Source of the DNA: Eubacteriales bacterium
GTDB lineage: Bacteria > Bacillota > Clostridia > Oscillospirales > CAG-272
Length of the DNA: 39,243 nt
NCBI GenBank assembly: GCA_045655025.1
Contig: JAZOOM010000235.1
Location: 1 to 39,243 of the forward strand
Direction of reading: 5' to 3'
Of this stretch, positions 3,157-39,243 are shown in pieces. A program made the position numbers and the translations under genes. Position 1 is the stretch's first letter. Each line of letters begins with the position of its first letter. The notes beneath the pieces were generated by a model that was not told where the DNA came from, did not search any database, and saw only the letters and a program-made list of their open reading frames with translations.

Positions 3157-3735
3157 ATGGCCGAGCATATCATCACCGACGATGACATTATAGCCCTACT
3201 GTTCGCCCGCCGCGAGGACGGTCTGGAACAGGTAGCCAAGCGGTACGGCAGGGACTGTCACCGCATCGCCCGCAATGTTTTGGGGAGTGAGCAGGACGCG
3301 GAGGAATGTGTCAACGATATGTACATGAAGGTTTGGGATTCTATTCCACCCGCCCGTCCAAAATCCCTGCGCTCCTTCGTCTTGACCTTGACACGAAACT
3401 TAGCCATTGATAAGCTCCGCGTCAACCGTGCGGGGCGGCGCATACCCGCTGATATTTGCATCCCTCTCTCCGAGCTGGAGGAGCATCTGGAGGGCATCGC
3501 CGTCAGCGACGAACGCATGACCGAGGATCTGCGCCGTATCATCAACGAATTTTTGGATTCACTATCCAAAAAGGACGCCGCCCTGTTCGTTCGTCGTTAC
3601 TGGTATCTGGACTCGGTGCGCCGTTTGTCCGAGATCAGCGGTTACAGCGAAAACAACGTCTACCAACGCCTGTTCGTCATGCGGCAAAAGCTTCGTGACA
3701 GACTGATTAAGGAGGGTTACGAATATGAAGTATAA
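3157..3735 (+). CDS. ECF-sized sigma-70 family RNA polymerase sigma factor (sigma 1)
   Basis: The track start at 2926 would read through the terminator and promoter. ATG 3157 has the RBS GGGAAGGAG (3141..3149). 192 aa. Region 2-like DAEECVNDMYMKVWDSIPPARP...RNLAIDKLR and region 4 HTH-like RRLSEISGYSENNVYQRLFVMRQKLR. Paralog of 35571..36137. Confidence 0.85.
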   Translation: MAEHIITDDDIIALLFARREDGLEQVAKRYGRDCHRIARNVLGSEQDAEECVNDMYMKVWDSIPPARPKSLRSFVLTLTRNLAIDKLRVNRAGRRIPADICIPLSELEEHLEGIAVSDERMTEDLRRIINEFLDSLSKKDAALFVRRYWYLDSVRRLSEISGYSENNVYQRLFVMRQKLRDRLIKEGYEYEV

Positions 3736-5041
3736 AAAATCCGTAAAGCTGACGAGCCTGATAAACGATGAATACATCCTGTTGGGCGCTGAGGCCGAGG
3801 GGCTGTTCCGCCGTCGTGAGCGTGGCGTGTGGATCAAGCGCGCCTTGGTCATCGCCGCCTGCCTGTCTCTGCTGACCGTTGGCGTGGCGGCGATCCTGCT
3901 TCCGGCCTTGCGGAGGGATGAACCTCCCCAGATCGAAACCGAGACTGCGGAGGAAGAAGATCCGTCTGTGTTCTACCTCTCGGAAAAGAGCTACGTGACG
4001 GTGCAGTACCTCGTCGCGGGGAAGGAGCCGGACAGAGATGGCACCGAGACCGCAATCCCCGACAGCGATACCGTGCAGATCGACGAGGTGAACGCACGGA
4101 TCGGGCAACGCCTGATTTTGATTCACTTCATCTGCGCCGAGGGGGAGACGATTACCGTGACACCCACCGACCACTCCCGCTTGTTACCCGCCTACCGTTT
4201 CCTCTCCTCGGACGGGTACGTGCGGTGGAAGGTATGGAACGAGGCGCATCAGGCGTATGACCACGCCGAGGCCTATTGCTCGGATTGGGGAGGCAAGCCC
4301 TTGGAGGATATCGGGCAGAGCGTGACACTCACCGAGGACACCACCCTTCTGTGGCAGTACGAGATACGGGAGGCGAAGTATGAGAACAGTCCTACCCTCA
4401 TCCTTCCCTGCATCGAGGATAATTTCGTAGATTTCAAAGTAACGGATGCCCAAGGCAACATCACGGGCGGAGGAAGTATCTATATTGGTGGGCTGGATAT
4501 CGCCGCTATGACCGAAGATCATACCTATTATCGTAATGATTGGGTGGTTTATAATTCTATCTACCGTCCGCTTGTACTGGGTTCTTATCAGTATGGTTCT
4601 GATAATGGCAGTCCTGTCACCGAGGCATTCCATGATGAAACACTGGAGAGCCTCCATGCCCAGGCCCGAGAAAAACGAGACGAGACATTTGAGGATCTGT
4701 CCCCCGACAGCCCCCTGTTCTCCATGCGGAAGTTCGACCCCGACCACCACGAGACCTTCAGCAAGCATGATGAAAACGGCTATTCATGGAATATGAGTAA
4801 CTGGATCCATCACAGTCAAACCATGCCTTATGATCTGATTCTATTGGAATCCTCTAACTCGGAGCGTCGCTTCCTGCTCTACGATTTCGGCTATAACGAG
4901 ATTGCTGAAACCACCATTGAGATAGACAACGGGTTTGGCCGTATGGTCAAGGGCTGCTATGTCATGGTAGATGGCACTCACGTCTATGTGGACGAATCCA
5001 CCCCCGAGGGCTTTGTGATCGTACCGCCCACGGAGCAATAA
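3725..5041 (+). CDS. Putative membrane-anchored anti-sigma factor (anti-sigma 1), unrecognised extracytoplasmic domain
   Basis: ATG overlaps the sigma gene by 11 nt, with AAGGAGG about 10 nt upstream. Short cytoplasmic N-terminus, one TM (ALVIAACLSLLTVGVAAILLP), then about 375 aa outside. No zf-HC2 motif, so the anti-sigma role is inferred from position and topology only. Confidence 0.6.
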   Translation: MKYKKSVKLTSLINDEYILLGAEAEGLFRRRERGVWIKRALVIAACLSLLTVGVAAILLPALRRDEPPQIETETAEEEDPSVFYLSEKSYVTVQYLVAGKEPDRDGTETAIPDSDTVQIDEVNARIGQRLILIHFICAEGETITVTPTDHSRLLPAYRFLSSDGYVRWKVWNEAHQAYDHAEAYCSDWGGKPLEDIGQSVTLTEDTTLLWQYEIREAKYENSPTLILPCIEDNFVDFKVTDAQGNITGGGSIYIGGLDIAAMTEDHTYYRNDWVVYNSIYRPLVLGSYQYGSDNGSPVTEAFHDETLESLHAQAREKRDETFEDLSPDSPLFSMRKFDPDHHETFSKHDENGYSWNMSNWIHHSQTMPYDLILLESSNSERRFLLYDFGYNEIAETTIEIDNGFGRMVKGCYVMVDGTHVYVDESTPEGFVIVPPTEQ

Positions 5042-5060
5042 ACAGCAAAGGAGAAGAATC

Positions 5061-6386
5061 ATGTCAAAACGTAAACTTATCCCCATCGCTATCACCCTTG
5101 CCGCTCTGCTGGCGGTGGCTTTGTTTGCCGTCTCGCTGGCCTCCCGCCGCGCCCATGTCATCGGTAACGAGACCTATACCGAGGCTCCAAGTGAAACCCT
5201 ATCCCCTGACGAGCAATATCCTGCGGAGATAGATTGGATCGCCCTGTTTGAGGAATACGGAAATCTACGAAGTGAATCGGGTGCTACCAATAGTAACACG
5301 CCGTTCTTTTACTACTGGGAAAGTAATCAGTACAGCGAAACGCCCATTTTCAGCAAGACTGCGCGAACGCTGGATATACTCTGCAAGGAAGCCTTCTGCA
5401 CCCACGAGACCTGCATATTCAGCGACGCCGATGAGTGGTTTCTGTGTGGAGTCGCGTATTTGAACGGCCGCATCTATTTCCTTCAAGATCAAATTACCGA
5501 CCTGCAAGCCCGTCGCCTGTGCTCCACAGACCTCCACCTGAACGACCCGAGGATCGAGTGGGAGCAGTCTAAGGGGCTGGAATCCATGCAGGCGGACGGG
5601 GAACGGCTGTATTTCGAGGAAACGGTCTATGATGAAAACGGAACGCCGATCTACAACACGGTATCCTGGTATGACCCCGCGAGCCGGGAATCCGGTTTTG
5701 TTTCCGAAACACTTCACGTCAAGAATTATATCGTCAGAAACGACCGGGTGTATGTGTTGCAAGGCCGCAACAAGGTCGTATGCTGCCGGGTGGATGATCT
5801 GACGATCAGCACCCTGCTCGAACTGGAATTGAAGGATACCCAACAGATCATTTTGGAATATGTGGATGACCAATATCTGGTGTATACCGTCATGTTCGGC
5901 TACCAAATCGGCGAGCCCCAAAGATGTCAGCTGGACACGGGAGAGGTATCCTCCTACTATGATATGCTTCCGCAGGGGTACACCTATCTGCTCGGCGAAA
6001 ATTTCGGAGATCAGGCCTTTCTGTGCATCGACCACAGCGGAGAAGCGTATGCGGAGGATCCCTACCACGATTTTTACACGGATATGTACACGGCAGAAAT
6101 CACGTCGAATAAGTCTTTGATGGCGGGGCGTATCTATACGCTTACGAACGAGGGTACACTCCGTGAGCTTGTACAGCTCACGACCGACGGGATTCCCGAC
6201 TTGATCTGGGGTATTGTGGACTACGACGGCCGCTATCTGTACGTAGACTATCAGACCTACAAGGATTACAGAAACGAGTACAATCCCGAGGGAGATCGCC
6301 GTAATTCGGATTGGCATTTGGCGGTCATTGATACCCAGACAGGGCAGGTCGTAAAGCCCTGCGAAACCGAAACGACTCAAGAATAA
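5061..6386 (+). CDS. Membrane-tethered or secreted propeller-like protein, subfamily B (B1)
   Basis: RBS AAAGGAG. N-terminal hydrophobic anchor without a lipobox Cys (LFAVSLASRRAH). Motifs LCKEAFCTHETCIF, DPYHDFYTDMY, GRIYTLTNEG, QLTTDGIPD, YQTYKDYRNEYNP. Confidence 0.88.
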   Translation: MSKRKLIPIAITLAALLAVALFAVSLASRRAHVIGNETYTEAPSETLSPDEQYPAEIDWIALFEEYGNLRSESGATNSNTPFFYYWESNQYSETPIFSKTARTLDILCKEAFCTHETCIFSDADEWFLCGVAYLNGRIYFLQDQITDLQARRLCSTDLHLNDPRIEWEQSKGLESMQADGERLYFEETVYDENGTPIYNTVSWYDPASRESGFVSETLHVKNYIVRNDRVYVLQGRNKVVCCRVDDLTISTLLELELKDTQQIILEYVDDQYLVYTVMFGYQIGEPQRCQLDTGEVSSYYDMLPQGYTYLLGENFGDQAFLCIDHSGEAYAEDPYHDFYTDMYTAEITSNKSLMAGRIYTLTNEGTLRELVQLTTDGIPDLIWGIVDYDGRYLYVDYQTYKDYRNEYNPEGDRRNSDWHLAVIDTQTGQVVKPCETETTQE

Positions 6387-6395: not shown

Positions 6396-8786
6396 ATGCT
6401 GAAATACGAACTGAAAAAGCTCATCGGTAACAAATTCCTCTGCATCACCTTCGCATTCCTGTTCCTGCTCAACGCTCTCCTGTCCTTCTATGAGGCTCGT
6501 GATACCGCTCTGAACCGTGACTACTTCTGCCCCGAGGACGAGTGGCACGGCGAGCTTCTGGCCATGTACGAGCGGTATGAGGCAGACCCCGAGGCCTTCA
6601 TGAAGGAATATGAGGCGGAGATGGAGTACCGCGAGCTGGCCGATGAAATGTCGGATTACTACTTCAATTACGCGAGGGAAAACGGTCTGCTCATTAACGG
6701 CACCTTCGACCCCGCCGACTACTGGGACGAATACGACGGAGACCGATTGAACCGCATATACTTCACCTACCGCCGCTTCGGGAATACCATGGAGCGCATT
6801 GAGGAGTATCCCGGGCAGATGCAGGCGGTACTGACCCAGGCACAGCAGACCCGCGCCGAATACCTGGCCCAGGGTATGTCGGAGAACGACTACGCCTACC
6901 GCTTCCAGAGCGATATCATGGATATCTACTGGGCGAATCAGTACATACCTCTTGAAAACGAGTATATCCGCGGTTGGGAGCCCTACTTCGCTTATGACCA
7001 CGGGGGGCTTTGCTTACTCCTGTTTTTGTTGGTGCTGGTAACGGGCATGATCCTGGACGAGAAAAAGAGCGGCATTTTCCCCCTCATCCACGCTACGCGT
7101 GAAGGGCACACCACCCTGATCCTCACCAAATTCGCCGCCCTGCTGACCGCCGTCACGGTAGCCGTTATCGCCTTTTCGGGCACCACGCTCCTGTTCTACG
7201 GCCTCCGCTACCACGGCTTTTCCTCCCTTGGCGGCTATGTTCAGCTCATGGAGGATTACCTCTACTGTCCCCAGATGCTCAAGGTAGGCGAGCTGCTGGT
7301 GCTGACCGTCCTCATGAAGATCCTTGCCATGACCGCCCTGGGTATGCTCATTCTCATGCTCTCCGCCCTCCTGCGGAGCCATGCCTTTACCTACATGAGC
7401 GGCCTTGTGCTGGTGGCGGGGAATTTCGTCCTGTACCTGACCGAATATCTGGATCCCAATCACCCCTTGCGCCTCATGAACGCCTTTGCGGTCATGGACA
7501 CGGATCTCCTGTTCGGACAATATTACGCTATCAATTTCTTTGGCTTTGCCATCCCCGCGCTCCCCTGTATCATCGGAGCTCTGCTCGCCCTCATAGCCGT
7601 CTGCGGCGGCATTACCGTGTATCTTTTTAACCGCGCCGACGGGAAAGCCACCCTTCGTCTGCCCGAGAAGCTGACCCGTATGTTCAGCCGCAAGCGGTTC
7701 CGTCTCCCCACCATCCCCTGCCTCATCCGCACCCGTTCGGGATATGAGTGCCACAAGCTTTTGGTGGCCGGGAAATACATCATTCTCATCCTTGTCGTGC
7801 TGTTCCTTAAGGTCGAAATTACAGACCGTACCGTGACGCCCCACCTCGCCCCCTCGGATGCACGCTACCGCAGCTACATGACCCTTTTGGAGGGAGAAGC
7901 CACCGACGAGAAGCTGACCTACATCCAAGAGGAGCGGGACATGGTGGACGAGATCATCTACAGCGAAAAGCCCATGCAGAACAAGTACTTCAAGGCGGAG
8001 ATCAGCTACGAGGAATACGTGGAGTATCAGGACGCGCTGGAGGACGCCAAGGTGCGGGATAAGGCGCTGTTACAGGTGGAGGCCCGCCGCGACCATATCC
8101 TTGCCCTCCGCGCCGAGGGACAGGAGGCCTACTTCCTGTACGACACGGGCTGGAATCACCTGCTGACCCTGGGCTTTGATTACTTGCTCTACGCCGCCGT
8201 TCTGCTCCTGTTCGCGGGGCTGTTCGCCTCGGAGTACCGTGCAGGCATGACTGCCATCCTCCGCGCCACCAAGGGCGGACGGGGACACACCTTTGCGGTA
8301 AAGTTTGCCTTGGCCGTCATCCTCGCTTTGGGGCTGGGTATCACTTTTGCCGCTATTGACTACAACGCGGTTATCCCCCTTTACCGTTTTCCTGCCTCGG
8401 ATGCCCCTGCCGCCAGCCTGATCCTTTTCGGCAGCGTACGCGGGAGTTTGACCATCGAGCAGCTTTTCTGGGTCTACGAAACCTTGCGCACGCTGGGTTT
8501 TGTCCTTTTGGCAGTCGCCACCGTATCCCTGTCGGCGCTGTTTGAGAAGACGGTATCCTGTATGTCCACCGTGGCGGCGGTCACGCTGATCCCCTACGCC
8601 ATCACCGCCTTTGGCCTGGATGCGGCCAAGTACGCCGATTTCACCGCCCTGCTCAGCGGCCATGAGTATATCACCCTGCTGACGGCATCCCCCCTCTACG
8701 GCATCCTGTTCACGGTGACCGTACTCACGCTTACGGTGGGTTTGTTCGCCCTCTGCCACCGCAAATGGGTCAGAAGTACGTCGTGA
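6396..8786 (+). CDS. Fused (internally duplicated) ABC-2-type transporter permease (Perm1)
   Basis: 796 aa with an MLKYELKKLIGNKF N-terminus. Two homologous halves: YELKKLIGNKF / YECHKLLVAGKY and EKKSGIFPLIHATREG / EYRAGMTAILRATKGG. Each half has TM1, a soluble acidic loop of about 170-190 aa, and about 5 hydrophobic segments. Confidence 0.85.
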   Translation: MLKYELKKLIGNKFLCITFAFLFLLNALLSFYEARDTALNRDYFCPEDEWHGELLAMYERYEADPEAFMKEYEAEMEYRELADEMSDYYFNYARENGLLINGTFDPADYWDEYDGDRLNRIYFTYRRFGNTMERIEEYPGQMQAVLTQAQQTRAEYLAQGMSENDYAYRFQSDIMDIYWANQYIPLENEYIRGWEPYFAYDHGGLCLLLFLLVLVTGMILDEKKSGIFPLIHATREGHTTLILTKFAALLTAVTVAVIAFSGTTLLFYGLRYHGFSSLGGYVQLMEDYLYCPQMLKVGELLVLTVLMKILAMTALGMLILMLSALLRSHAFTYMSGLVLVAGNFVLYLTEYLDPNHPLRLMNAFAVMDTDLLFGQYYAINFFGFAIPALPCIIGALLALIAVCGGITVYLFNRADGKATLRLPEKLTRMFSRKRFRLPTIPCLIRTRSGYECHKLLVAGKYIILILVVLFLKVEITDRTVTPHLAPSDARYRSYMTLLEGEATDEKLTYIQEERDMVDEIIYSEKPMQNKYFKAEISYEEYVEYQDALEDAKVRDKALLQVEARRDHILALRAEGQEAYFLYDTGWNHLLTLGFDYLLYAAVLLLFAGLFASEYRAGMTAILRATKGGRGHTFAVKFALAVILALGLGITFAAIDYNAVIPLYRFPASDAPAASLILFGSVRGSLTIEQLFWVYETLRTLGFVLLAVATVSLSALFEKTVSCMSTVAAVTLIPYAITAFGLDAAKYADFTALLSGHEYITLLTASPLYGILFTVTVLTLTVGLFALCHRKWVRSTS

Positions 8787-8808: not shown

Positions 8809-10017
8809 ATGAAACGTATCTCGATTCTCCTGCTGTCTCTGCTTGCCCTTTCCATGACCGCCTGCTCCTTTGGCGGCGACGGAAACGACGATACCACGCA
8901 AGGCACCTTCGTCAATCCCCACTACGAGACCGAAGCTGAGGTCTGCCGTGTTCACGACCTTGTGGACGGTATCTGTCAAATCTGCGGCGCGGATATGCCC
9001 GAGAGCCAAGGCCTCCAATATGAGCTGACCGAGGACGGAGCGGGCTACGCGGTCACGGGGCTTGGCACCTGTACCGATACCCAAATTCTCATTCCCGCCA
9101 AGCACGACGGTCTCCCCGTGGTGAGCGTCACCACCATGGGCGAGAGCGTGGACGTAACCAATGTGGTCATCGGAGAGAACGTCACATCGATTCAGAGCTA
9201 TTCTTTGAGCGGCTTGACCTCCCTCAAGGGGCTGACCGTCCCACCCTCCTTGACCACCCTGCCCGTCAACGCCTTTGCGGGGCTTCCCATTCAGTCTGTC
9301 ATCCTCCCCGAGGGTCTGACCGAGATTTCCTACGGGATGTTCCAGAATTGCGGCTCCCTGCGGAGTATTCATATCCCCTCTACCGTCACCGTGATCGGAG
9401 ATATGGCCTTCAGCGATTGCCGTCTCTTGCGGGAGGTCAATTTTCCCGATGGACTTGTCAGCATTGGAAGCTCCGCCTTCAAGGGCATTGTAAACCTCCC
9501 CGAGATCACCCTGCCTGCCACCCTGCAAGTCGTCGGCAACGGTGCCTTTGACAAGTGCGAGAACCTCAAAACCGTCCGCTACAGCGGGAATATCGCCGCC
9601 TGGTGTACCATCCAATTCGAGATGAACGGTAATCCTCTGGTCAACGGCGCGGATTTCTACGTGGGCGGTGAAAAGGTGGTTGACCTCATCATCCCAGAGG
9701 GAGTCAACAAGCCCGGAGAGTTCACCTTCCAAGGGTGCGGAAGCATTGAGAGGGTAGTTTGTCCCGCCTCCATGACCGAGCTGACCGTGGGTATGTTCAT
9801 GTCCTGTAAGAATATCAAGGAAGCTGTGTTCCTTGGGGAGATCACCGTCCCCGGCGTCCTGCATTTCGCGGGGTGTGAAGCCCTTACCGATATCTACGTC
9901 AGCAACCCCGAGGGAGACGGCGTGCTGATGGTCGGGGCCCAGTTCAGCACGAATGCCACGGCTCACTATCAGGGGTCGTGGGAGCTGGATGAGAACGGGA
10001 ATATCATTCAAAAATGA
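8809..10017 (+). CDS. BspA-type leucine-rich-repeat lipoprotein (LRR1)
   Basis: Lipobox LSMTAC. C-x2-H-x6-C-x2-C cluster (CRVHDLVDGICQIC). Repeats of about 23-25 aa of the form IPxxVxxIGxxAFxxCxxL, e.g. IHIPSTVTVIGDMAFSDCRLLREVNFPDGLVSIGSSAFKG. Confidence 0.88.
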   Translation: MKRISILLLSLLALSMTACSFGGDGNDDTTQGTFVNPHYETEAEVCRVHDLVDGICQICGADMPESQGLQYELTEDGAGYAVTGLGTCTDTQILIPAKHDGLPVVSVTTMGESVDVTNVVIGENVTSIQSYSLSGLTSLKGLTVPPSLTTLPVNAFAGLPIQSVILPEGLTEISYGMFQNCGSLRSIHIPSTVTVIGDMAFSDCRLLREVNFPDGLVSIGSSAFKGIVNLPEITLPATLQVVGNGAFDKCENLKTVRYSGNIAAWCTIQFEMNGNPLVNGADFYVGGEKVVDLIIPEGVNKPGEFTFQGCGSIERVVCPASMTELTVGMFMSCKNIKEAVFLGEITVPGVLHFAGCEALTDIYVSNPEGDGVLMVGAQFSTNATAHYQGSWELDENGNIIQK

Positions 10018-10036: not shown

Positions 10037-11464
10037 ATGTCCAAAAAACGCATCATTGCCATCATTTCGGTCGCCCTTATCCTCGTTGCGGCCATTGCCA
10101 TATCCATCCCCCTCATCACCCGCCGCGCAAGCATCGTAGGCGACGAGACCTATACCGAGGCTCCTGCGGAGACCCTGTCCCCCGACGAGTGCTACCCCAT
10201 CTCCGAGGCGGACTGGGAGGCTATTTTCGAGCAGTACGGAGCTCCGGCCAGCACGACCAATTATAACTTGGTTAACACCCCTTATTATACCTTCCTGTCC
10301 CATACCTACGGCAGTAGTAAGGCCTACAGCAAGGTCTCCCAGACCTATGTTGAGCTTTGCCCCGATCCCTTCTGCACTCATGAGGAGAGGAGTGATTGCC
10401 AGTTTTCGACCGGTCGTTCCTTCGAGGGTGCCGTCTACCTGAACGGACGGATCTACGTGCAAACCTCCGACTTCGATCAAAGAGACGTCCGTCTGCTGTC
10501 TTTCGATGAGCATCTGGCCGATCTGCGGGTGGAGCTGGATCCCATGCCCACCGTCTCCTATAAAGGCACGGTCGGCGGGGCAATCATCTCGGGTGGTGAT
10601 CGCATCGAGATAAATAAAGAGACCCTGATGTTCAGCTCCTGGTCGGATATGCAGGCCGACGGAGACCGTCTGTATTTTTCCACCGAGATCTATGATCTCG
10701 ACGGCAAGAAGCTCCGCAGTACGGTGATCTGGTACGACCCCGCAACGGGAGAGTACAAGCACGTAAACGAGTCTGTGGCCATGTCGGGCTTTATCGTGCG
10801 AAATGGCGTCGTATACGCCACTCAGGATCGCTATCGCCTCATTGCTTGCAACGTGGCTACGGGCGAGGTCAAGACCCTTCTGGAGGTGGAAAAGCATCTG
10901 TCTGTAAGCCTTTCCTCGGTAAGCGATGTGTGCGTAGAATACCATACCACGGATTGGGCGACCCAAAACCTGGATACGGTGGAATACATGTACGACCTGA
11001 CGACCGGGCAGAGTAAGCTGCGGAGTGAGCTGAATCCAATGGACAAGAACGTGGTAGCCAGCTACTTCTATGGGGACACTACCTTCTGCATAGTGGATCA
11101 CAGCGGAGAGGCCTACAAGGACGACCCGGGCTATGACTTTTACACGGCCGAGGATACCGCCAAAAGCTCAAGCGGCCGCGCCGCCTGGGCAGGGCGTATC
11201 TACCGTCTGGAGACCGACGGGAGTCTTACCGAAGTGGCACAGCTCACCACCAAGGGTATCCCCGACATGATCTGGTGGCTTATGGGCTTTGACGGACGGA
11301 TGCTGTACGTGAGCTATCAGACCTATCTGGACTACCCCAACAGCCTGTGTGACCAGCCCTCGTACAGCGCTACGGTGTTCCGTAACGCCGCCATTGACAC
11401 TCTGACGGGTAAGGTCTACAAGCTTCCCTCCTTCCCGGAGCTGGATCTGGAGAAAGAGGACTGA
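10037..11464 (+). CDS. Membrane-tethered or secreted propeller-like protein, subfamily B (B2)
   Basis: RBS AAAAGGAG. Anchor AIAISIPLITRRAS. Motifs LCPDPFCTHEERSDCQF, DDPGYDFYTAED, GRIYRLETDG, QLTTKGIPD, YQTYLDYPN. N-terminal ETYTEAPxETLSPDE is shared with B1. Confidence 0.88.
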   Translation: MSKKRIIAIISVALILVAAIAISIPLITRRASIVGDETYTEAPAETLSPDECYPISEADWEAIFEQYGAPASTTNYNLVNTPYYTFLSHTYGSSKAYSKVSQTYVELCPDPFCTHEERSDCQFSTGRSFEGAVYLNGRIYVQTSDFDQRDVRLLSFDEHLADLRVELDPMPTVSYKGTVGGAIISGGDRIEINKETLMFSSWSDMQADGDRLYFSTEIYDLDGKKLRSTVIWYDPATGEYKHVNESVAMSGFIVRNGVVYATQDRYRLIACNVATGEVKTLLEVEKHLSVSLSSVSDVCVEYHTTDWATQNLDTVEYMYDLTTGQSKLRSELNPMDKNVVASYFYGDTTFCIVDHSGEAYKDDPGYDFYTAEDTAKSSSGRAAWAGRIYRLETDGSLTEVAQLTTKGIPDMIWWLMGFDGRMLYVSYQTYLDYPNSLCDQPSYSATVFRNAAIDTLTGKVYKLPSFPELDLEKED

Positions 11465-11499: not shown

Positions 11500-11581
11500 A
11501 AAAATCGTGCCACTCGGATATTTCGCGAAATCGGATTGTATGGTACAATAGGGCTGTACGATCCGATCTCATTCCGTACAG
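11500..11581 (+). promoter_or_regulatory. Conserved promoter cassette (palindrome + extended -10 + leader hairpin) for A3
   Basis: 11500..11565 is identical to 1387..1452. Palindrome ATTTCGCGAAAT at 11520..11531. TGgTACAAT at 11541..11549. Hairpin arms CTGTACG (11554..11560) and CGTACAG (11575..11581) are conserved while the loop differs from copy 1. Confidence 0.6.
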
Positions 11582-11595: not shown

Positions 11596-12987
11596 ATGAA
11601 AAAGCCATTATTGCTCGTATTGACAGCCATGCTGCTGCTGTCCTCGTTTGCTTCGTGCTCCCGCCGCGGGCAGTACGAGGACATTCTGGAAAGCCAAAAG
11701 GAAGCCGAATCCCTTGATGCCATCCCCGAAACAAATGGGAACATCACGGGTGAAAGTGCTCCCGATTATGAAACTCCCATCATGCTAAAAACAGGAGACG
11801 CTCCCTATTGGGAAGGAAAAACCATGGAGGAGCTGCAGGCCATCTACAGAAGCACGGCTACCAAGAGGAATTCCGGTCAAACCGTAATGCCTACGGGAAA
11901 GCTATACTCCATGAACAACGGAGAAATGTTCTTCTACAACAAGCTCACGGGCAATATCAGCAACTGGTGCAGCGATCCTCTGTGTAATCTCGCAGAAAAC
12001 GATCAGTGTATCTGGTGGGACTTCAAGGAGATCGTTTACGTCAGTGATGCATACATCTACTTTCAGACGGCGGATTTTTACAACGACTATAAAATGTACC
12101 GATGCGATCTGCAAAGGAACAACGTAGAGGAGGTCTTTGACATACTGGAATACATCGACCACGAGAGCTCCCCGGACGGCTTGGCAGGTACGACCGACGT
12201 ATCCGTGGATGACGCGGACGTGATCTATGAAAAGGACGGTGTGCTGTACTATCTGCAAGCCCATCTCGTCGATACCAAGAGCGTCAGCTCCGTGTACGCC
12301 ATGGATCTCAAGTCCAAGGAGATCACGGCCCTTTCGGGAGATCAGGATATCCATTTCATAAAGATCGCCGCCGATCAGGTGTTCTATACTCTTTCCTCTG
12401 CGCCTTATACCTGGTATCAGACCGATCCGGCCTTTACTGCATCCAAGAAGATATTTGACGACACCGTCATTCACCATGTTAACGATCAGTATCTGATCCT
12501 TGGCAGAATGGTGGGGGGACAGGTGACGGACGCCCTGTTTTCCTATGATCTGAAAACGGGAGAGACCTATGAGCTGAACGACCAGCGCGGGAATACCTAT
12601 CTGTCGGGCGTGTACCTGTATTACACCAGAAATCTCACCGAGGAGGAAATGGAAAACGATCCCCTAAAGGACTATTATACCTATAAGGCCTCCGGTAAGA
12701 ATCCCTCGACAACACAAGGAGCGGGGAAAATCTACCGCGTCTACGTTGGCGAGGATAAAGCCCCCGAGGAATGTGTGTTTCAGCTTACCTATAAGGGTAT
12801 TCCTGTCCGCCTCAAGGATATCGAAATGGACGGCGAGACCATCTATATCTCCTTCAACAACCACGAGGGCTTCAAGAATTTCTACAATCAGGACTTCCGT
12901 GGGAGCGATAGAGATACCTGCGTTTACGGCATTGTTGATCTGCAAAGCGGGAGCGTGAGCTTCCTAGAGATTCCCAAGGAGGAGTAA
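11596..12987 (+). CDS. Cell-surface propeller-like lipoprotein, subfamily A (A3)
   Basis: The track start at 11536 lies inside the promoter -10 and leader. ATG 11596 has the RBS GAAAGGAAAA and begins MKKPLLLVLTAMLLLSSFASC (lipobox). Motifs FYNKLTGNISNWCSDPLC...CIW, YRCDLQRNN, DPLKDYYTYKA, GKIYRVY, FNNHEGFKNFYNQD. Closest relative is A1. Confidence 0.9.
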   Translation: MKKPLLLVLTAMLLLSSFASCSRRGQYEDILESQKEAESLDAIPETNGNITGESAPDYETPIMLKTGDAPYWEGKTMEELQAIYRSTATKRNSGQTVMPTGKLYSMNNGEMFFYNKLTGNISNWCSDPLCNLAENDQCIWWDFKEIVYVSDAYIYFQTADFYNDYKMYRCDLQRNNVEEVFDILEYIDHESSPDGLAGTTDVSVDDADVIYEKDGVLYYLQAHLVDTKSVSSVYAMDLKSKEITALSGDQDIHFIKIAADQVFYTLSSAPYTWYQTDPAFTASKKIFDDTVIHHVNDQYLILGRMVGGQVTDALFSYDLKTGETYELNDQRGNTYLSGVYLYYTRNLTEEEMENDPLKDYYTYKASGKNPSTTQGAGKIYRVYVGEDKAPEECVFQLTYKGIPVRLKDIEMDGETIYISFNNHEGFKNFYNQDFRGSDRDTCVYGIVDLQSGSVSFLEIPKEE

Positions 12988-17718: not shown

Positions 17719-17748
17719 GGTCATACTCTCCCATTTTAAGATAACACC

Positions 17749-17777
17749 ATTATACCACATTCCGTGGCTTTTGTAAA
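17749..17777 (-). promoter_or_regulatory. Sigma-A-type promoter of the LytTR RR-kinase operon
   Basis: Read on the minus strand: TTTACA (17777..17772), a 17-nt spacer, then extended -10 TGgTATAAT (17757..17749). Confidence 0.65.
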
Positions 17778-17801
17778 TACGTCAAGACTTCCCAAGGGAC
17801 A

Positions 17802-17829
17802 ACGAATGGGGCGGAAAAAACGACGAATG
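17802..17829 (+). promoter_or_regulatory. Direct repeats ACGAATG spaced 21 bp; candidate LytTR-regulator binding site
   Basis: cAACGAATGG (17802..17808 core) and cGACGAATGC (17823..17829 core). The starts are 21 bp apart. The second repeat ends 11 nt upstream of the + strand -35 and lies about 25 nt upstream of the minus-strand -35. Confidence 0.4.
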
Positions 17830-17840
17830 CGAAACCCGCC

Positions 17841-26633: not shown

Positions 26634-26634
26634 T

Positions 26635-33859: not shown

Positions 33860-33907
33860 AATTCGTGCCGATAAGGTATTTCGCGAAATCGCATCGTATG
33901 GTATAAT
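33860..33907 (+). promoter_or_regulatory. Third, diverged copy of the palindrome-containing promoter cassette, upstream of A4
   Basis: AAATTCGTGCC, then the perfect palindrome ATTTCGCGAAAT (33878..33889), then extended -10 TGgTATAAT (33899..33907). The palindrome-to--10 spacing matches copies 1 and 2. The leader hairpin is not conserved here. Confidence 0.55.
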
Positions 33908-33952: not shown

Positions 33953-35374
33953 ATGAAAAAGCTGCTTCTGCTCGCGCTGGCCACCACGATTCTGCTTGCT
34001 TCTTTTGCCTCCTGCTCCCGCCGCGGGGCTTATGAGGATCAATTGGAAAGCCAAAAGGAAGCCGCATCCATGGATGCAGCTATGGACACAGGTCCTGTCC
34101 GCGGTGAGAATCACGAGGACTACGATGTGACCATGGAGATCGACACCGAAGCCAAAACAGAGGGGAATACCTCGGGTAATGTGCAAGATCCGCCCGCCGA
34201 CGAGCCCCCAAGCTCCACATTCTACCGTGGTGGCACGCTCCTGCCCACGGGTAAGAAATACTACGTGAATTCGGTGGCATACTTCTACAACAACTTGACA
34301 GGCAACATCAGCCATTGGTGCAGCGATCCTCTGTGTCCCCACGACGAGAGCTGTATCTGGTCGAGTAATCTGTACGCCAAGCTGGAATACGTCAGCGACA
34401 AGCATATCTATTTCATATCCGACTACGGCGATATGGTGCCTAAGCTGTACCGTTGCGACCTACAGCGGAACAACATTGAGCTTTTGTACGAGCTGCCCGG
34501 CGTGGCCGAGGACAAGGCTACCTACTACGACCATGTTGAGGTGGTCTACGAGAAGGGGGACAAGGTCTATTTCGTCCAGAGCGAATACAAGTCCCAGGGA
34601 AAGAGCGTGACCGCCTTCAAGGTGTTGGACGCGGTTTCCAAGGAGATCACGGTTTTGTCGGGAGACAAGAGCGTACAGATCGAGGCCGTTGTTCGGGACA
34701 TGGTCTACTATTCTCTGCGCGGTGTTGCCTCGGCGGAGGATACGGTGATCTACAAAACCGATCTGTCCTTTGCGAATGCGGAGGAAGCCTTCAAGGCCTG
34801 TACCATCCGTGACTACAACAACGAATATATGCTGATAGAAAAATACGAAAACGGCTACGGCTGGACAACACTCAATCCCGTCTATGCTTACTGCATGAAC
34901 ACGGGCACCTATATCCCCCTGCCCACAGGTGACGGAGCCGTGAACTTCAAGCTGTCGGGGGACTGCGTTTTCTTTGAAAAGCCCCTTTCGGCGGAGGAGA
35001 TCCAAGGCTCCCCCTTGAAGGATTACTATGAATACACCTGGCAGACTCGGGAGGAGATGCCCGACGGCACGGTCATCACCAGCGGGATCAAGAACGCCTC
35101 CACCACCCGCGCGGGGAAAATCTACCGCATGAAGCTTGGGAGTGAGAAAATCGAATGCGTGGTGAGCTTTGCCTACAAGGATATCCCTGTTCGCATTGAG
35201 GACTTTGAGGTAAATGGTGACAAGGTTTACTTCACCTTCAAAAACCACGAGGAGTTCAAGAATTTCTACAATCAGGATTTTGACGAAATGAGTCAATATG
35301 TATTCCCTCATTACGCCGTAGCGGATCTGAAGGGACAGAATGTGACCATTTTGAGCTTTGACGGGCTGGATTAA
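33953..35374 (+). CDS. Cell-surface propeller-like lipoprotein, subfamily A (A4)
   Basis: Lipobox LLASFASC. Motifs CSRRGAYEDQLESQKEA, FYNNLTGNISHWCSDPLCPHDESCIW, YRCDLQRNN, SPLKDYYEYTW, GKIYRMKLG, FKNHEEFKNFYNQD. Confidence 0.9.
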   Translation: MKKLLLLALATTILLASFASCSRRGAYEDQLESQKEAASMDAAMDTGPVRGENHEDYDVTMEIDTEAKTEGNTSGNVQDPPADEPPSSTFYRGGTLLPTGKKYYVNSVAYFYNNLTGNISHWCSDPLCPHDESCIWSSNLYAKLEYVSDKHIYFISDYGDMVPKLYRCDLQRNNIELLYELPGVAEDKATYYDHVEVVYEKGDKVYFVQSEYKSQGKSVTAFKVLDAVSKEITVLSGDKSVQIEAVVRDMVYYSLRGVASAEDTVIYKTDLSFANAEEAFKACTIRDYNNEYMLIEKYENGYGWTTLNPVYAYCMNTGTYIPLPTGDGAVNFKLSGDCVFFEKPLSAEEIQGSPLKDYYEYTWQTREEMPDGTVITSGIKNASTTRAGKIYRMKLGSEKIECVVSFAYKDIPVRIEDFEVNGDKVYFTFKNHEEFKNFYNQDFDEMSQYVFPHYAVADLKGQNVTILSFDGLD

Positions 35375-35449: not shown

Positions 35450-35570
35450 CGTGATCCATGCCCCTTTTTACGAAAAAAATGAGAAATATTTTTCAAAAAC
35501 GACGGTTTCCCGTTTTCGGTTCCGTCTTTATCAGTGAAGGGGGCGGTAACAGGAAGGGAGGCGCGGTCAA

Positions 35571-36137
35571 TTGAAGGATGATGGGATCATCGAGCTGTTG
35601 CAAAGCCGTGATGAGAAGGCCATCGAAATGACGGCGGAACGGTACGGACGTTACTGTATGCAGATCGCCATGAATATTCTGCACAATGAATGGGACGCGG
35701 AGGAATGTGTGAACGATGCCTATCTTCGCTTGTGGAACAGCATCCCGCCCGCGCGCCCGAAAGTCCTGCGGGCATTTCTCGGGCGGATCGTGCGGAATCT
35801 GTCCATTGACCGCCACCGCTCTATCCACCGCGCGGGCTACAACAGCGATCTGGAGGTGTCTCTGGAGGGCTTGATGGAGGAGCTGGGGGACTGTATTCCG
35901 AGCGATGATGAGGTCCCCGGCTCGGTGCTGGAGGCATTACCCGGGCTGTTTGACGGTTTTCTGGAGAAGGAGACCGAGCTGAACCGCAAGCTGTTCGTGG
36001 GCCGGTATTGGCATGGCTACAGCATGGTTGTACTGGCGGAGGGCTATGGGATTTCCGAGGATGCGGTAGACGGACGGTTGCGGCGGATTCGGGAGCGGTT
36101 GCGGAATTATCTGGAAGAGAGGGGGATTCGAATATGA
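35571..36137 (+). CDS. ECF-sized sigma-70 family sigma factor (sigma 2)
   Basis: TTG start with GGGAGG about 9 nt upstream. Region 2-like DAEECVNDAYLRLWNSIPPARP...RNLSIDRHR. Region 4-like VVLAEGYGISEDAVDGRLRRIRERLR. Paralog of 3157..3735. Confidence 0.8.
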   Translation: MKDDGIIELLQSRDEKAIEMTAERYGRYCMQIAMNILHNEWDAEECVNDAYLRLWNSIPPARPKVLRAFLGRIVRNLSIDRHRSIHRAGYNSDLEVSLEGLMEELGDCIPSDDEVPGSVLEALPGLFDGFLEKETELNRKLFVGRYWHGYSMVVLAEGYGISEDAVDGRLRRIRERLRNYLEERGIRI

Positions 36138-37495
36138 GGAGAACCAACTATGAGGCTTATAAGCAGCTCAGCGGTATACGGGACGATTACATCACCGAAG
36201 CCGAGCTGCCCATGGCATATGTGAAAAGAAGCATGAGGCGCAGGCGGCTGAAAAACAGACTCAGCCGTGTGGTGCAAAGCAACTGGTTTGTTGCCGCTGT
36301 ATGCACCATTGTATCCTTGAGCACGGTCTCTTGGATCGCATATATGGGGCAGAGGATACCCACGGAGGTTCCCCCGCCTTATGGCAGTATGCAGGAGAGC
36401 ACCGCCACGCAGTATGGCGATCAGGATCCTATGATCTTGTATGCCAATCCCTACGAGGGCATGAGCCGGGAGGAGCTGTATGAGCTCTACGCAAGACAGG
36501 AGACCGCCATTTCCCGGGCCGTGACGGATCATGCCAACAGACAGTACCAAACCCCGTACTACGTGTTTGTGAGCGACACGGAAAAAGAAGCCCGTGTATT
36601 TAATAAGCTGACGGGAAAATATGAGAGCATTTGCAAGATAGAGGGGTGTGAACACACCAATCCGGAGGACTGTCCCGCCACGTATACGAAAGGCCTTGTT
36701 CCGGGTTCATTACGGGTGGCGAACGACTGCGTCTACGCGATTCTGGACACCGGGCAAGGTGAGCAGGCTCTGTTTACCTTCGATTTGGATCTGACTAATC
36801 CGCAGATGCGGGGAGCGTACACATCACCGTCTCCCTTGGTTATGGCCTATCGGAATCTCCTTGTGGCTAACGGCACCATCTACGATGTGTGTATGAGCAT
36901 TACCCCTAAAGACGGCCGATTCCATTTTGATTCGGCGCGCTTCATCGTTGAAAATGGGGATATACAGGAGTTTGCGAGCATGATCTCCCACATACGGGAC
37001 GGGGCGCTTTTGTACTTTTCTACCCATGAAGGAATTATGCAAGCGAACCTGCAAACGGGAGAGATCGTCACTCTGCTCTCTGCCGCAGAGCTGGGGTATG
37101 AGGTCTACGATCTCCCGGAACGGGACAGCAGCAGCGGATATCCACTGCTCACCGCCTTGAAAAACGGCCGATTGTATATCGAAACCGTCACGGTCACGGG
37201 AGAGAGCCGTTACTGTACCTTGACGCTGGACACCATGACTCTTGATCCGTATATACCCGCTTGGGAGGAGACCGCGCCCGAATCGTTCCTTGTTTACGAC
37301 GGGACTGCCTACATGGTGAAGCAGGGCGTTGTTTATGCCACACCGTTGGATGGGGCTGACACCAAAATGGTCGCCCGCCTCCCCGATGGGCGGGCGTGTA
37401 TCCTTGTTTCCTGTGATGGCAGGATCCTGTATGCGGAAACCGAAACTCATATTCTGATGATTGAGTTGGAAACAGGAAAGATTTATATTCCATAA
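36134..37495 (+). CDS. Putative anti-sigma factor whose extracytoplasmic domain belongs to the propeller-lipoprotein family (anti-sigma 2)
   Basis: ATG 36134 overlaps the sigma 2 stop (ATGA). The track start at 36008 is inside sigma 2. About 50-aa cytoplasmic part, then a TM (WFVAAVCTIVSLSTVSWIAYMG). Family motifs follow: ANPYEGMSREELYELY, TPYYVFV, FNKLTGKYESICKIEGCEHTNPEDC, FTFDLDLTNP, C-terminal DGRILYAE...IELETGKIY. Confidence 0.75.
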   Translation: MRRTNYEAYKQLSGIRDDYITEAELPMAYVKRSMRRRRLKNRLSRVVQSNWFVAAVCTIVSLSTVSWIAYMGQRIPTEVPPPYGSMQESTATQYGDQDPMILYANPYEGMSREELYELYARQETAISRAVTDHANRQYQTPYYVFVSDTEKEARVFNKLTGKYESICKIEGCEHTNPEDCPATYTKGLVPGSLRVANDCVYAILDTGQGEQALFTFDLDLTNPQMRGAYTSPSPLVMAYRNLLVANGTIYDVCMSITPKDGRFHFDSARFIVENGDIQEFASMISHIRDGALLYFSTHEGIMQANLQTGEIVTLLSAAELGYEVYDLPERDSSSGYPLLTALKNGRLYIETVTVTGESRYCTLTLDTMTLDPYIPAWEETAPESFLVYDGTAYMVKQGVVYATPLDGADTKMVARLPDGRACILVSCDGRILYAETETHILMIELETGKIYIP

Positions 37496-37522
37496 TGAAA
37501 TAACCGCGAAAGGGGCGATCTC

Positions 37523-39243
37523 ATGATCCGATACGAAATCAAAAAGCTGTTTGGCAACAAATTCATCCCCATTTTCTTTGTCATCATGTTCGCCTTGAAC
37601 CTACTGCTATCCTACTACGCCGCCCCTCGCTCACGGGGTGAGCTGAACCTGCATTCCGAGCTGGATGCGGAGACCCAGGCCATTGTGGATGAAATGTACG
37701 CACGCTACGAGGCGAATCCCGAGACGTTCATGGAAGAATTCTCAAGCTGTCGGGCGTACTATCTGACATCCATCGAAATGACCTCTCTGGTGACCGAGAA
37801 GAACATGGAAGCCATGATGCGGGGCGAGGAGGGCAACTACACCATACAGGATTTTTGGCCAGAATATAACGAGGAAATTCAAGCCAAGGTGGATCTTTAT
37901 TTCAATACCTATCGGTATTTCTACCGCGTCAGTGGATACGTCACGGAGGAGTACCCCGCGCTTCTGAAGAGTGTGATCGACAACGCCAAGCTGTTTCAGG
38001 AGGAATACCTGGCCTACGGCATGAGCGCGGACAGCTACGAATACCACTACCAGAGCGACGTGATCGACGTTTACTCCGTAAACAAGAATCTGCCCATTCG
38101 CTTTGAGGATCGCAAGGGGTGGGATATGTATTTCACCTATACCGACGGCAATATCTGTATGCTGCTATTCATCCTCGTCCTCATCCCGGGACTTCTGCTG
38201 GATGAGAAAAAGAACGGCACCTTTCCCATTCTCCGCGCCACGAAACAAGGACAGTTGGCTCTGATCGTCACCAAATACATAGCCCTGCTGCTGGTCTCTG
38301 CCGCTTCCGTCCTGCTGTTCAGCGGAGCCACGTGGATCATTTTCGGATTGGAAAGCGGCGGGTATTCCTCTCTCTCCAACTTCGCGCAGATCTTTGAGGT
38401 GAACGTGTACTGCCCGTACATCGTCACGGTGGGTGAATATCTCGGTTTGACCCTGCTCATCAAAATACTCTCCCTGTTCTCGGTGGGCTCTCTGCTCATG
38501 ACGGTTTCCTTGTTGGTCAAGAATCACGCTCTCAGCTACCTTGCGGGGCTGATCTTCGGAGGGGCAAACTTCGCCGTCCACTTCACGGATTTTCTGGACA
38601 CGGATCATCCTCTCCGCCTACTCAACATCTTCACCGTCATGGATACCGAGGTGTGCTTCACCCGTTACCATGCCATCAATATGTTCGGGCGGTGTCTGCC
38701 CTATTTGTCCGCTATTTTCCTCTTTTTCGGTCTGCTTTTGGCCTGTACCGCCGTGGCGACGGGACTGCTTTACTGTCGTACCCCCGGTGTTCATAAGGTA
38801 CGGCGGAGGAAGTCGCGGAGCAAGCGGGCGATATTCACCAAGGCCATCCCGTGCCCCGTGCGTCTCATGGGCGTGTACGAGCTGCACAAGCATTTGGTGG
38901 CGGGAAAATGGCTACTCCTGATCCTGGCCGTCCTGCTGGTCAAGGGCTATACGGTGTACACCACCGAATCGGTGGCGTACTCCTTTTCGGACGCGGTCTA
39001 CCGGGACTACATGGAGCTTTTGGCGGGAGAAGTCACCGACGCCAAGCTTGCCTACATGGAGGACGAGCGCGCCTATCTGGACAGCATCCTTTCCTCCGAG
39101 GAAATCATGAAGGAGGAGTACGCGAGCAAGGAGATCTCCTTTGCCGAATACATGGAATACCAGGACGAGCTGGATACGGCAAAGGCCAAAGACCCCATTT
39201 TCGTGTCCGTGGAAGCCCAGCGGGATCACCTGCTTGCCTTGCG
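37523..39243 (+). CDS. Fused ABC-2-type transporter permease (Perm4); 3' end outside window
   Basis: Absent from the supplied ORF track because there is no stop codon in the window. ATG 37523 has GAAAGGGG upstream. My translation MIRYEIKKLFGNKFIPIFF... stays open to the window end and is colinear with Perm3 (LLDEKKNGTFPILRATKQG vs LLDEKKNGTYPIIRATKLG; second half begins YELHKHLVAGKW). Confidence 0.85.
   Translation, partial: MIRYEIKKLFGNKFIPIFFVIMFALNLLLSYYAAPRSRGELNLHSELDAETQAIVDEMYARYEANPETFMEEFSSCRAYYLTSIEMTSLVTEKNMEAMMRGEEGNYTIQDFWPEYNEEIQAKVDLYFNTYRYFYRVSGYVTEEYPALLKSVIDNAKLFQEEYLAYGMSADSYEYHYQSDVIDVYSVNKNLPIRFEDRKGWDMYFTYTDGNICMLLFILVLIPGLLLDEKKNGTFPILRATKQGQLALIVTKYIALLLVSAASVLLFSGATWIIFGLESGGYSSLSNFAQIFEVNVYCPYIVTVGEYLGLTLLIKILSLFSVGSLLMTVSLLVKNHALSYLAGLIFGGANFAVHFTDFLDTDHPLRLLNIFTVMDTEVCFTRYHAINMFGRCLPYLSAIFLFFGLLLACTAVATGLLYCRTPGVHKVRRRKSRSKRAIFTKAIPCPVRLMGVYELHKHLVAGKWLLLILAVLLVKGYTVYTTESVAYSFSDAVYRDYMELLAGEVTDAKLAYMEDERAYLDSILSSEEIMKEEYASKEISFAEYMEYQDELDTAKAKDPIFVSVEAQRDHLLAL

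Follow-up and report, generated by a model that had tools for sequence, protein, structure and literature searches.

ABC-2-type ATP-binding cassette (ABC) transporters that function with accessory proteins are known, but we know of none whose partners are co-diversifying β-propeller and leucine-rich repeat (LRR) proteins. In LanFEG with LanI (and the related CprABC) and in PmtABCD, a DrrA-type ATPase and ABC-2 permeases operate with or alongside a lipoprotein and are inducible by envelope- or peptide-sensing regulators, and NosDFY-NosL, which matures NosZ, is a solved case of an ABC-2 permease and ATPase acting via extracytoplasmic partners, a lipoprotein among them. On the side of regulation, the sigY-yxlCDEFG operon of Bacillus subtilis includes a sigma factor of the extracytoplasmic function (ECF) type and a membrane anti-sigma factor along with an ABC-2 transporter, and in NatKR-NatAB, a LytTR-type two-component system is located next to the operon of an ABC-2 (ABC2_membrane_3) transporter. 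Here we describe a stretch of 39,243 nucleotides (nt) of an uncultured ruminant-gut Clostridia bacterium (contig JAZOOM010000235.1, positions 1 to 39,243; hereinafter, the window) in which six-frame open reading frame (ORF) prediction and domain scans delineate 28 genes of 8 classes. The products are 13 paralogous propeller proteins (four of class A, two of class B and seven of class C) and one propeller-anti-sigma fusion, four fused ABC-2 permeases with 12 transmembrane (TM) segments, three ABC ATPases, two BspA-type LRR lipoproteins, two ECF sigma/anti-sigma pairs and one LytTR two-component system; all genes are on the plus strand except for those of the two-component system, which are on the minus strand. 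We are highly confident that such a system exists, and we read the window as an array in which the operons of this one, uncharacterized envelope system have been amplified.

A scan of 185,579 species-representative genomes with the permease alignment as the query detected 22 true loci in about 9 species-level metagenome-assembled genomes (MAGs), the closest of which, RGIG8947, shows ~97% identity; the source of the MAGs, where stated, is ruminant hindgut (roe deer, water deer, goat, sheep). Word-indexed searches retrieved 57 propeller clusters and 15 permease clusters, unnamed and all from MAGs labeled 'Clostridia bacterium', and a later search of this kind with a profile added almost nothing new. 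The modules that the original prediction had outlined, with co-occurrence outside this genome set in advance as a check, do recur, both in the ~9 species-level MAGs and in more distant lineages.

Partner pairing was analyzed for 35 distinct fused permeases from the window and about 25 related loci (numbered with the prefix L), in which the ORFs were annotated by comparison with the window proteins and duplicates were removed. In L003-L005 and L011, the gene order is sigma, anti-sigma, A, Perm773, ATPase, Perm801, LRR, C, C, C; in L008 and L009, it is B, B, Perm796, LRR, A, ATPase, Perm796, LRR, four C genes, sigma, anti-sigma, permease; and L038 and L039 reproduce nearly the whole order of the window, down to its LytTR system and its pair of ATPases. 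An A propeller gene precedes the permeases of the Perm2 type in 11 of 11 cases, usually with an ATPase gene after the permease; an LRR gene follows the permeases of the Perm3/4 type in all 15 cases, with C propellers coming next; and the permeases of the Perm1 type (at least 77% identity) have an LRR gene behind them in 5 of 5 cases and a B gene ahead of them in 4 of 4. For a permease subtype of 787 amino acids (aa), the arrangement is a different one (LRR, C, permease, A, ATPase), and the six loci with half-size ABC-2 genes (L032-L037) include neither propellers nor LRR proteins. The distances between the permeases correlate with those between their nearest propellers (Mantel r=0.67, with none of 2000 permutations exceeding 0.16) in a set of loci that includes orthologues from related genomes, so that the points are not independent. 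Because every permease subtype is matched by a propeller subfamily of its own and the two co-diversify, these observations argue for a functional partnership between the transporter and the tethered proteins. The reading that we favor, tentatively and with somewhat less than even confidence, is that of an inducible system for export or detoxification, with the propellers and LRR proteins as its exchangeable ligand-binding partners.

Alternatively, the propellers and LRR proteins could comprise a fast-evolving surface repertoire, with roles in adhesion, masking of phage receptors or antigenic variation, that is merely co-regulated with an exporter of an unrelated substrate. This would suit the observation that, among close relatives, the content and copy number of the propellers shift while the transporters remain 97-99% identical, and that the neighboring C genes in L003 and L010 are only 45-70% identical to those of the window. 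The same can be said of the codon usage: the third-position GC content is 0.53-0.65 in C1-C7, 0.59 in A2 and 0.65 in A3 vs 0.72-0.81 in the permease, ATPase, LRR and two-component genes, an unevenness that possibly results from a more rapid turnover, from recombination with donors of lower GC content or from differences in expression. Furthermore, LRR_5, the family to which the LRR proteins belong, is the 'BspA type' LRR family of Pfam, and BspA is a known adhesin. The strict subtype pairing and co-diversification are, however, hard to reconcile with independence of the surface proteins from the transporter, and the persistence of a core triad in distant lineages (see below) as well as the tight spacing or overlap of the genes also speak against it; we consider this explanation fairly unlikely.

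The A, B and C proteins belong to one superfamily: in all-against-all BLAST comparisons, the identity between classes is 21-27% (E 1e-7 to 1e-25), and that within classes is 36-57% for A1-A4, 40% for B1/B2 and 49-68% for C1-C7. The alignments of all propellers contain a C-x4-C-x-H-x2-3-C motif with three invariant cysteines and a near-invariant histidine; in C1, the motif reads ICKDPICDHNRC (residues 156-166), with equivalents in all A, B and C proteins. The A and C proteins possess an L/F-A-S-C lipobox and to this extent are the propeller lipoproteins that had been predicted; B1 and B2 are not lipoproteins because their N-terminal membrane anchor lacks the lipobox cysteine. Right behind the lipobox cysteine or the B-type anchor, there is an Arg-Arg pair (R25/R26 of C1, within 'SRR'), near-invariant across the three classes, which may serve as a signal for sorting, or for docking at the surface of the membrane. 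In the C family, the lipobox is followed by ~70 disordered residues, and the AlphaFold2 model of C1 (predicted local distance difference test score, pLDDT, 78.9; predicted TM-score 0.75) is an all-β propeller behind this disordered linker.

The A, B and C propellers and the anti-sigma 2 fusion have no match in Pfam, PF16472 included, even at E≤10, and none in NCBIfam or PADLOC; a sequence search of the PDB with the propeller profile produced nothing significant. With this profile, 862 proteins were recovered from 1.84 billion representatives at E<1e-3, 162 of these at E<1e-10 and 82 at E<1e-30, and the Cys/His motif is present in 71 of the 143 proteins examined among the profile matches listed. 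Given that the distant matches of the profile are proteins of Pfam family DUF5050 (PF16472, alias LRP1-like_beta_prop; E 1e-15 to 1e-28), the window propellers do have relatives and are, by the measure of profile similarity, a divergent branch of DUF5050 that lies beyond the reach of the Pfam model. The two LRR lipoproteins, 35% identical to each other, match LRR_5 (PF13306) with E-values of 1e-53 (LRR1) and 5e-67 (LRR2) and scores of 181 and 224 bits, respectively (cutoff 27.7). A C-x2-H-x6-C-x2-C motif is located ~28 residues past the lipobox in 21 of 24 distinct LRR lipoproteins (residues 46-59 of LRR1). To judge from the sequences, the Cys3His-type motifs that follow a flexible linker in both the propellers and the LRR proteins may be zinc knuckles or docking elements.

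The four permeases are 37-52% identical to one another in the all-against-all comparison. Hydropathy analysis yields the succession of TM1, a loop of ~170 aa, five TM segments, a linker, TM7, a loop of ~115 aa and five more TM segments; both extracytoplasmic loops are α-helical in the AlphaFold2 model of Perm1 (pLDDT 80.8), and the N-terminal half is homologous to the C-terminal half (hhalign probability 99.5%, E 4e-23). The permeases accordingly combine six TM segments per half, N-in topology, a large loop between TM1 and TM2, and a nucleotide-binding domain in a separate subunit. Perm1-3 match no Pfam, NCBIfam or PADLOC model, even at a permissive E-value, and Perm4 matches ABC2_membrane_3 below the threshold (E 4.5e-7, 29.7 bits; cutoff 31.6 bits); among 16 aligned members of the permease family, three match ABC2_membrane_3, one matches ABC2_membrane_2 and one ABC2_membrane_4, with a best E-value of 9e-10. 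A search of the PDB with the Perm1 sequence gave nothing significant, and in the Foldseek comparison of its model the highest probabilities were those of PmtD (0.96) and NosY (0.89), with ABCG25, Pdr5 and ABCA7 also recovered. In the absence of Pfam and NCBIfam matches (other than the sub-threshold one of Perm4), the labels 'propeller' and 'ABC-2' rest on profiles, structures and relatives; the 6+6 layout, the homologous halves and the relatives that match ABC2_membrane models make the label 'fused ABC-2 permease' well supported for what is a very divergent family. Among the folded regions of the permeases, the first extracytoplasmic domain (ECD1) diverges most, with a mean identity of 34% vs 43-48% for the membrane domains and ECD2, which fits a role in partner or ligand specificity.

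The ATPases match ABC_tran with E-values of 1e-28 to 1e-30; their best similarities in NCBIfam, all below the cutoff, are to GldA, DrrA, lantibiotic-protection, NodI and PmtC ATPases, and the PADLOC scan of the window proteins detected generic ATPase similarity only. This type of ATPase remains 93-99% identical across the related loci, next to permeases that are just 43-58% identical. Within the window, ATPase1 and ATPase3 share 98% of the amino acids and 92% of the nucleotides, and because the DNA differences are mostly synonymous, the likeness points to purifying selection; recent gene conversion was rejected, given that 8% of the nucleotides differ, mostly at synonymous positions. No ATPase gene adjoins Perm1 or Perm4, and the N-terminal helix of each permease half contains an invariant glutamate and an invariant lysine (E5/K8 and E451/K454). 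Together, the conservation of the ATPase, the permeases without an adjacent ATPase gene and the invariant E/K residues suggest that a single type of ATPase serves all permease paralogues.

The regulatory components are of two kinds. The ECF sigma factors (44% identity between sigma 1 and sigma 2) consist of regions 2 and 4 only, with matches to Sigma70_r2 and to TIGR02937 (76.9 bits; cutoff 42.9). No zf-HC2, RskA or other Pfam anti-sigma domain is detectable in the proteins encoded downstream of the sigma factors, and anti-sigma 1 matches nothing in Pfam or NCBIfam and nothing significant among PDB sequences; we infer that both are anti-sigma factors from the overlap of the genes, the presence of one TM segment and the conserved synteny, homologues of anti-sigma 1 following sigma genes in L008, L011, L020, L030 and L040. 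Residues ~76-451 of anti-sigma 2 match the C-family propellers (E 1e-12 to 1e-15); the ectodomain of anti-sigma 1 is unrelated to the propellers in the BLAST comparison. The two-component system consists of a regulator with Response_reg and LytTR domains and a HATPase_c_5 (GHKL) kinase that has one TM segment and no sensor domain. This transporter family has regulators of the LytTR/GHKL type as neighbors in three independent settings, namely, the window's clade, L041 and Clostridium tagluense.

Distant members of the family were picked solely by propeller or permease homology and by the length of the contig, and about 10 contexts were sampled of the 862 profile hits. In L006, a permease that is 25% identical to Perm1 is surrounded by four propeller lipoproteins. 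L041 encompasses a LytTR regulator, a kinase, a 419-aa anchored protein with the motif CNRPDCPHNGTDC, an ATPase and a permease of 786 aa. In L043, there are two propeller lipoproteins, a permease of 800 aa that matches the permease profile with an E-value of 2e-195, another propeller and an ATPase, and in L044, an ATPase, a permease of 721 aa (E 8e-96) and a propeller. The sole match in the plasmid database is on plasmid pCM022-183 of C. tagluense CM022 (L045; NZ_CP086156.1, positions 168159-177719 of the record), and a search of the plasmid database with B1 found nothing. The plasmid locus encodes an ATPase, two half-permeases, one similar to the N half of the profile (1.5e-41) and the other to its C half (3.9e-55), a lipoprotein annotated as 'DUF5050 domain-containing protein' and two further envelope proteins, and adjoins agrB, agrD and a GHKL kinase gene; its DUF5050 protein lacks the Cys motif. 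In L001 (1-9980) and L002 (3504-9929), distant propeller genes are located directly downstream of a MoxR-DUF58-BatA-VWA (Bat-like) operon. LRR genes are absent from L001, L006, L041, L043, L044 and L045. Because the same three neighbors recur in distant lineages and in C. tagluense, the conserved core of the system is an ATPase, a fused or split permease and a DUF5050-type propeller, whereas the LRR proteins and ECF sigma factors are additions in the window's clade. Thus, of the recurrent module of regulator, transporter, LRR protein and propeller that had been proposed, the permease, ATPase and propeller stand as the core, and the LRR proteins and ECF sigma factors are specific to lineages or subtypes.

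The presence of Cys/His motifs in every propeller of the window, in about half of the profile matches listed and in most LRR lipoproteins raises another possibility, that the tethered proteins are clients of the transporter, which would provide the energy or a cofactor for maturing the propellers and LRR proteins, loading them (for example, with a metal at the Cys3His sites) or releasing them (for example, by pulling lipoproteins out of the membrane), in a manner similar to that of NosDFY-NosL with NosZ or of LolCDE with lipoproteins. The position of NosY among the best structural matches of the permease is compatible with this idea, and so is the near-invariance of R25/R26 right after the lipobox or anchor. 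On the other hand, the Pfam and NCBIfam scans of the window proteins detected no homologue of NosD or NosL and no Lol-type FtsX domain, the anti-sigma 2 fusion suggests that the propeller is a sensor, and the DUF5050 partner in C. tagluense does without the Cys motif, so that a client role appears unlikely to us.

It could also be imagined that the propellers act similarly to substrate-binding proteins (SBPs), with numerous tethered paralogues bringing different ligands, such as glycans or peptides, to a shared transporter for uptake or scavenging. The several diversified, tethered binders that accompany a permease resemble the multiple SBPs per importer, the presence of the binder fold on an anti-sigma factor is reminiscent of RsgI/SigI-type systems, which sense polysaccharides, and glycoside hydrolase genes are found near L001, L006 and L043. 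Systems of the ABC-2/DrrA type are, however, known as exporters or extractors; the glycoside hydrolase neighbors differ between loci; and the window encodes no catabolic enzymes and, according to the Pfam and NCBIfam scans, no canonical SBP fold or importer permease. An uptake function is, in our assessment, quite improbable. Finally, the notion that the cluster is a paralogue island brought together by chance or an assembly artefact has a negligible probability and is refuted by the recurring order, subtype pairing and co-diversification, the same order having been recovered from independent assemblies, which represent different animals and studies, and from the finished plasmid of a cultured strain, and chance-level statistics being rejected both for the Mantel correlation and for the promoter-proximal box described below.

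We return, then, to the inducible exporter with exchangeable ligand-binding partners. The core of this system consists of the DrrA/GldA-like ATPase, the internally duplicated, type V-like ABC-2 permease with 12 TM segments, and one or more tethered propellers; from this core, permease subtypes have radiated along with their cognate sets, that is, A with Perm2, B and LRR with Perm1, and LRR with a C array with Perm3/Perm4. The propellers and BspA-type LRR lipoproteins would partner with the permease ectodomains and capture an envelope-active ligand, and the ABC-2 pump would expel the ligand from the membrane, similarly to LanFEG with LanI or to Pmt-type self-protection. Each ECF sigma/anti-sigma pair would drive the operon it heads, with anti-sigma 2 sensing through the propeller fold that it has in common with the effectors, and the sensor-less kinase and the LytTR regulator would probably read the transporter activity or a peptide signal. 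The most plausible ligands, by analogy, are amphipathic peptides or bacteriocin-like compounds because the ATPase resembles DrrA, lantibiotic-protection and Pmt ATPases, the association with LytTR/GHKL (agr-type) regulators is repeated, the control is by ECF sigma factors and the turnover of the binders is fast.

Several observations weigh against this scenario. The class of ligand is guessed by analogy: no gene for a bacteriocin or peptide turned up in the window, where the small ORFs in two leaders are unconvincing, and the Pfam, NCBIfam and PADLOC scans revealed no homology to LanI or to known immunity or defense proteins. The structural comparisons are not specific either: in Foldseek searches, the C1 model matches only generic Kelch-like and other propellers (TM-score 0.3-0.5), and the Perm1 matches are weak, all with E > 0.1 and target-length TM-scores of 0.46-0.55. 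In addition, the propeller gene by the MoxR-DUF58-BatA-VWA operon in L002 has no transporter nearby. A bolder proposal, to which we give a modest chance, somewhere between the exporter scenario and the alternatives discussed above, is an undescribed Gram-positive envelope machine in which a 12-TM ABC-2 transporter would employ interchangeable tethered Cys3His propellers, along with LRR proteins of the BspA type, as subunits that confer specificity and dock on the helical ectodomains, and an anti-sigma factor with the same propeller would be the matched sensor. Were this true, it would provide the first functional context for DUF5050 and a new logic of partner-dependent ABC-2 transport.

At the level of individual genes, the organization of the window is as follows (plus strand unless noted otherwise; A, B and C genes were assigned by paralogy, and the B-type anchors were predicted). 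A1 (1..1342) is cut at the 5' end by the boundary of the window, its frame-2 translation starting from base 2, and is 57% identical to A3; A2 (1481..2932), with the lipobox FASC, has no Pfam match. The first sigma operon starts with sigma 1 (3157..3735; Sigma70_r2, 8e-14; TIGR02937, 1.4e-21), which overlaps by 11 nt with the gene for the putative anti-sigma 1 (3725..5041), a single-pass protein (TM segment at residues 41-59) with an ectodomain of ~380 aa; B1, a membrane-anchored B-type propeller (5061..6386), Perm1 with its two helical extracytoplasmic domains (6396..8786; identified by topology, AlphaFold2 model and homologous halves), the LRR_5 lipoprotein LRR1, in which the C-x2-H-x6-C-x2-C motif is N-terminal (8809..10017; Pfam and motif), and B2, also membrane-anchored (10037..11464), follow. 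The next module includes A3 (11596..12987), Perm2 (773 aa; 12991..15312; paralogy and topology) and the DrrA/GldA-like ATPase1 (15330..16193; Pfam and NCBIfam). On the minus strand are the genes for the GHKL/HATPase_c_5 histidine kinase (16244..17017; Pfam and topology) and the LytTR response regulator (17014..17760; Pfam). Between the convergent ATPase1 and kinase genes, at 16194-16243, there is a GC-rich hairpin (AAGGAGTGTTGCGG...CCGCAGCACTCCTT) that is probably a bidirectional terminator.

Divergent from the two-component system is the longest array, which consists of C1 (17915..19381; AlphaFold2 model in addition to paralogy), C2 (19407..20891), ATPase2 (20906..21781; Pfam; 48% identity to ATPase1 and ATPase3), ATPase3 (21797..22660), C3 (22680..24167), Perm3 (801 aa; 24228..26633; paralogy and topology), LRR2 (26635..27876; an LRR_5 lipoprotein by Pfam and motif), C4 (27873..29372), C5 (29380..30849), C6 (30862..32337) and C7 (32351..33823), all of the C proteins being lipoproteins. 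It is followed by the A-type lipoprotein gene A4 (33953..35374) and by the second sigma operon with sigma 2 (35571..36137; domain scan), the putative anti-sigma 2, with its C-family propeller ectodomain including the Cys/His motif (36134..37495; paralogy and topology), and Perm4 (37523..39243), which is cut at the 3' end by the window boundary and was recognized by its ABC2_membrane_3 similarity; in the loci of its relatives (L019 and L026), the permease is followed by LRR-C-C-C. All gene classes of the original prediction were found in the order it gave, by the ORF listing, Pfam and NCBIfam scans and BLAST comparisons; its start at 3157 proved too late, given that A1 and A2, further upstream, belong to the system as well and that Perm4 exits at the 3' end. 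The gaps of 3-25 nt or overlaps that it reported hold approximately within modules (1-27 nt or overlap) but not for C3-Perm3 (60 nt) or between modules (129-221 nt). Minus-strand ORFs of 454-693 aa are antisense to permease and LRR genes (5265-7001, 8770-10134, 13840-15309 and 24195-26276) and probably are not genes but a consequence of the GC-rich third positions.

A motif scan identified a box, TCGTGCC-N2-T-N2-G-N-TATTT, at four sites of the window, compared with 0.01 expected, all on the plus strand: before A2 (1392..1410), where it is followed by the extended -10 element TGGTACAAT, before the sigma 1 operon (2998..3016), before A3 (11505..11523) and before A4 (33863..33881). The box lies directly behind the hairpin and T-run terminator of the preceding gene and ~22-25 nt upstream of an extended -10 (TGnTACAAT or TATAAT), and is present also in 12 related loci, nearly always before a sigma or A gene. 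It looks like a candidate binding site for a shared regulator that would link the A genes and the sigma operons. The A-gene leaders (approximately 1405-1455, 11518-11568 and 33876-33925) contain the palindrome ATTTCGCGAAAT. In addition, their -10 element is spanned by an inverted repeat, ATCGGATTGTA-N16-TACGATCCGAT, without an Rfam match; the copy in the A2 leader (1419-1452) scored as terminator-like, and the repeat could be an operator or a 5' leader hairpin. No Rfam family was matched anywhere in the window.

In the sigma leaders, canonical ECF -35/-10 promoters could not be defined, and only a proximal motif, GTCnTnATnAGTRRAGG, emerged: it reads GTCATAATAAGTAGAGG before sigma 1 (3106..3122) and GTCTTTATCAGTGAAGG before sigma 2 (35524..35540), both on the plus strand and both candidate autoregulated ECF promoters. 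Within the window, the motif is confined to these two leaders, which is consistent with autoregulation by each ECF sigma factor of the operon it heads, and similar sequences precede the sigma genes in L008, L011, L020, L023, L030, L038 and L040; its spacing from an upstream AAC-rich element is not canonical. The region between the two-component system and the C1 operon (17749..17869) contains predicted divergent sigma-70-like promoters with 11 of 12 matches each.

These findings connect a DUF without an assigned function, a divergent family of fused permeases and the BspA-like LRR proteins of Firmicutes into one testable system, which is amplified in ruminant-gut Clostridia to 14 propeller domains and 4 permeases within 39 kb. 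Its interest lies in the unusually clear partner specificity and in an anti-sigma factor that has the fold of the partners. If the partnership is real, it would be an addition to the ABC systems known to act through extracytoplasmic partners and might also explain how these gut anaerobes sense and resist envelope-active molecules. The C. tagluense locus, being minimal and borne by a finished plasmid in a cultured strain, might serve as an experimental model.

No description of a propeller-ABC-2 system was found in the literature searched, and for DUF5050 itself, the titles and abstracts of the papers listed that name it give no apparent link to transporters. The affinity with DUF5050 consists in the profile matches, the frequent Cys/His motif and the annotation of the C. 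tagluense protein, even as the window proteins miss the Pfam model. The similarity to FtsEX, MacB and BceAB is purely conceptual, an ectodomain that engages an extracellular partner and signaling to a sensor-less kinase: the Pfam scan detected no FtsX domain in the window, and the topology is that of ABC-2 with 6+6 TM segments rather than one with 4 or 10. The likeness to sigY-yxlCDEFG and NatAB is one of arrangement, these permeases being single proteins with 6 TM segments and without propeller or LRR partners; the sigma operons of the window, unlike sigY-yxlCDEFG, carry no ATPase of their own, and for the LytTR part, the arrangement of NatKR-NatAB is a closer precedent.

The comparison with NosDFY-NosL is brought closer by the position of NosY among the top structural matches; NosDFY-NosL is, however, a Gram-negative system, the window lacks the NosD β-helix, NosL and NosZ, and here there are many paralogous partners per transporter. 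As for the LanFEG and Pmt systems, PmtD is the structural match of the permease with the best probability, and the window ATPase scores 2.8e-43 (148 bits; cutoff 309.75) against the lantibiotic-protection model TIGR03740 and 1.5e-32 against the PmtC model, although all NCBIfam scores of the window ATPases with the families of this type are far below the cutoffs. In contrast to these systems, the permease has all 12 TM segments in a single fused protein and possesses two large helical ectodomains; in contrast to LanFEG/LanI, the partners are propellers and LRR proteins that are not LanI-like, and the regulators are ECF sigma factors and LytTR rather than LanRK, with no LanI-type lipoprotein, lantibiotic biosynthesis or LanRK genes detected in the window by Pfam and NCBIfam. 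Although not a member of any of these transporter families, the system of the window, judged by analogy, appears to work most like the ABC-2 immunity and extraction systems that employ accessory extracytoplasmic proteins.

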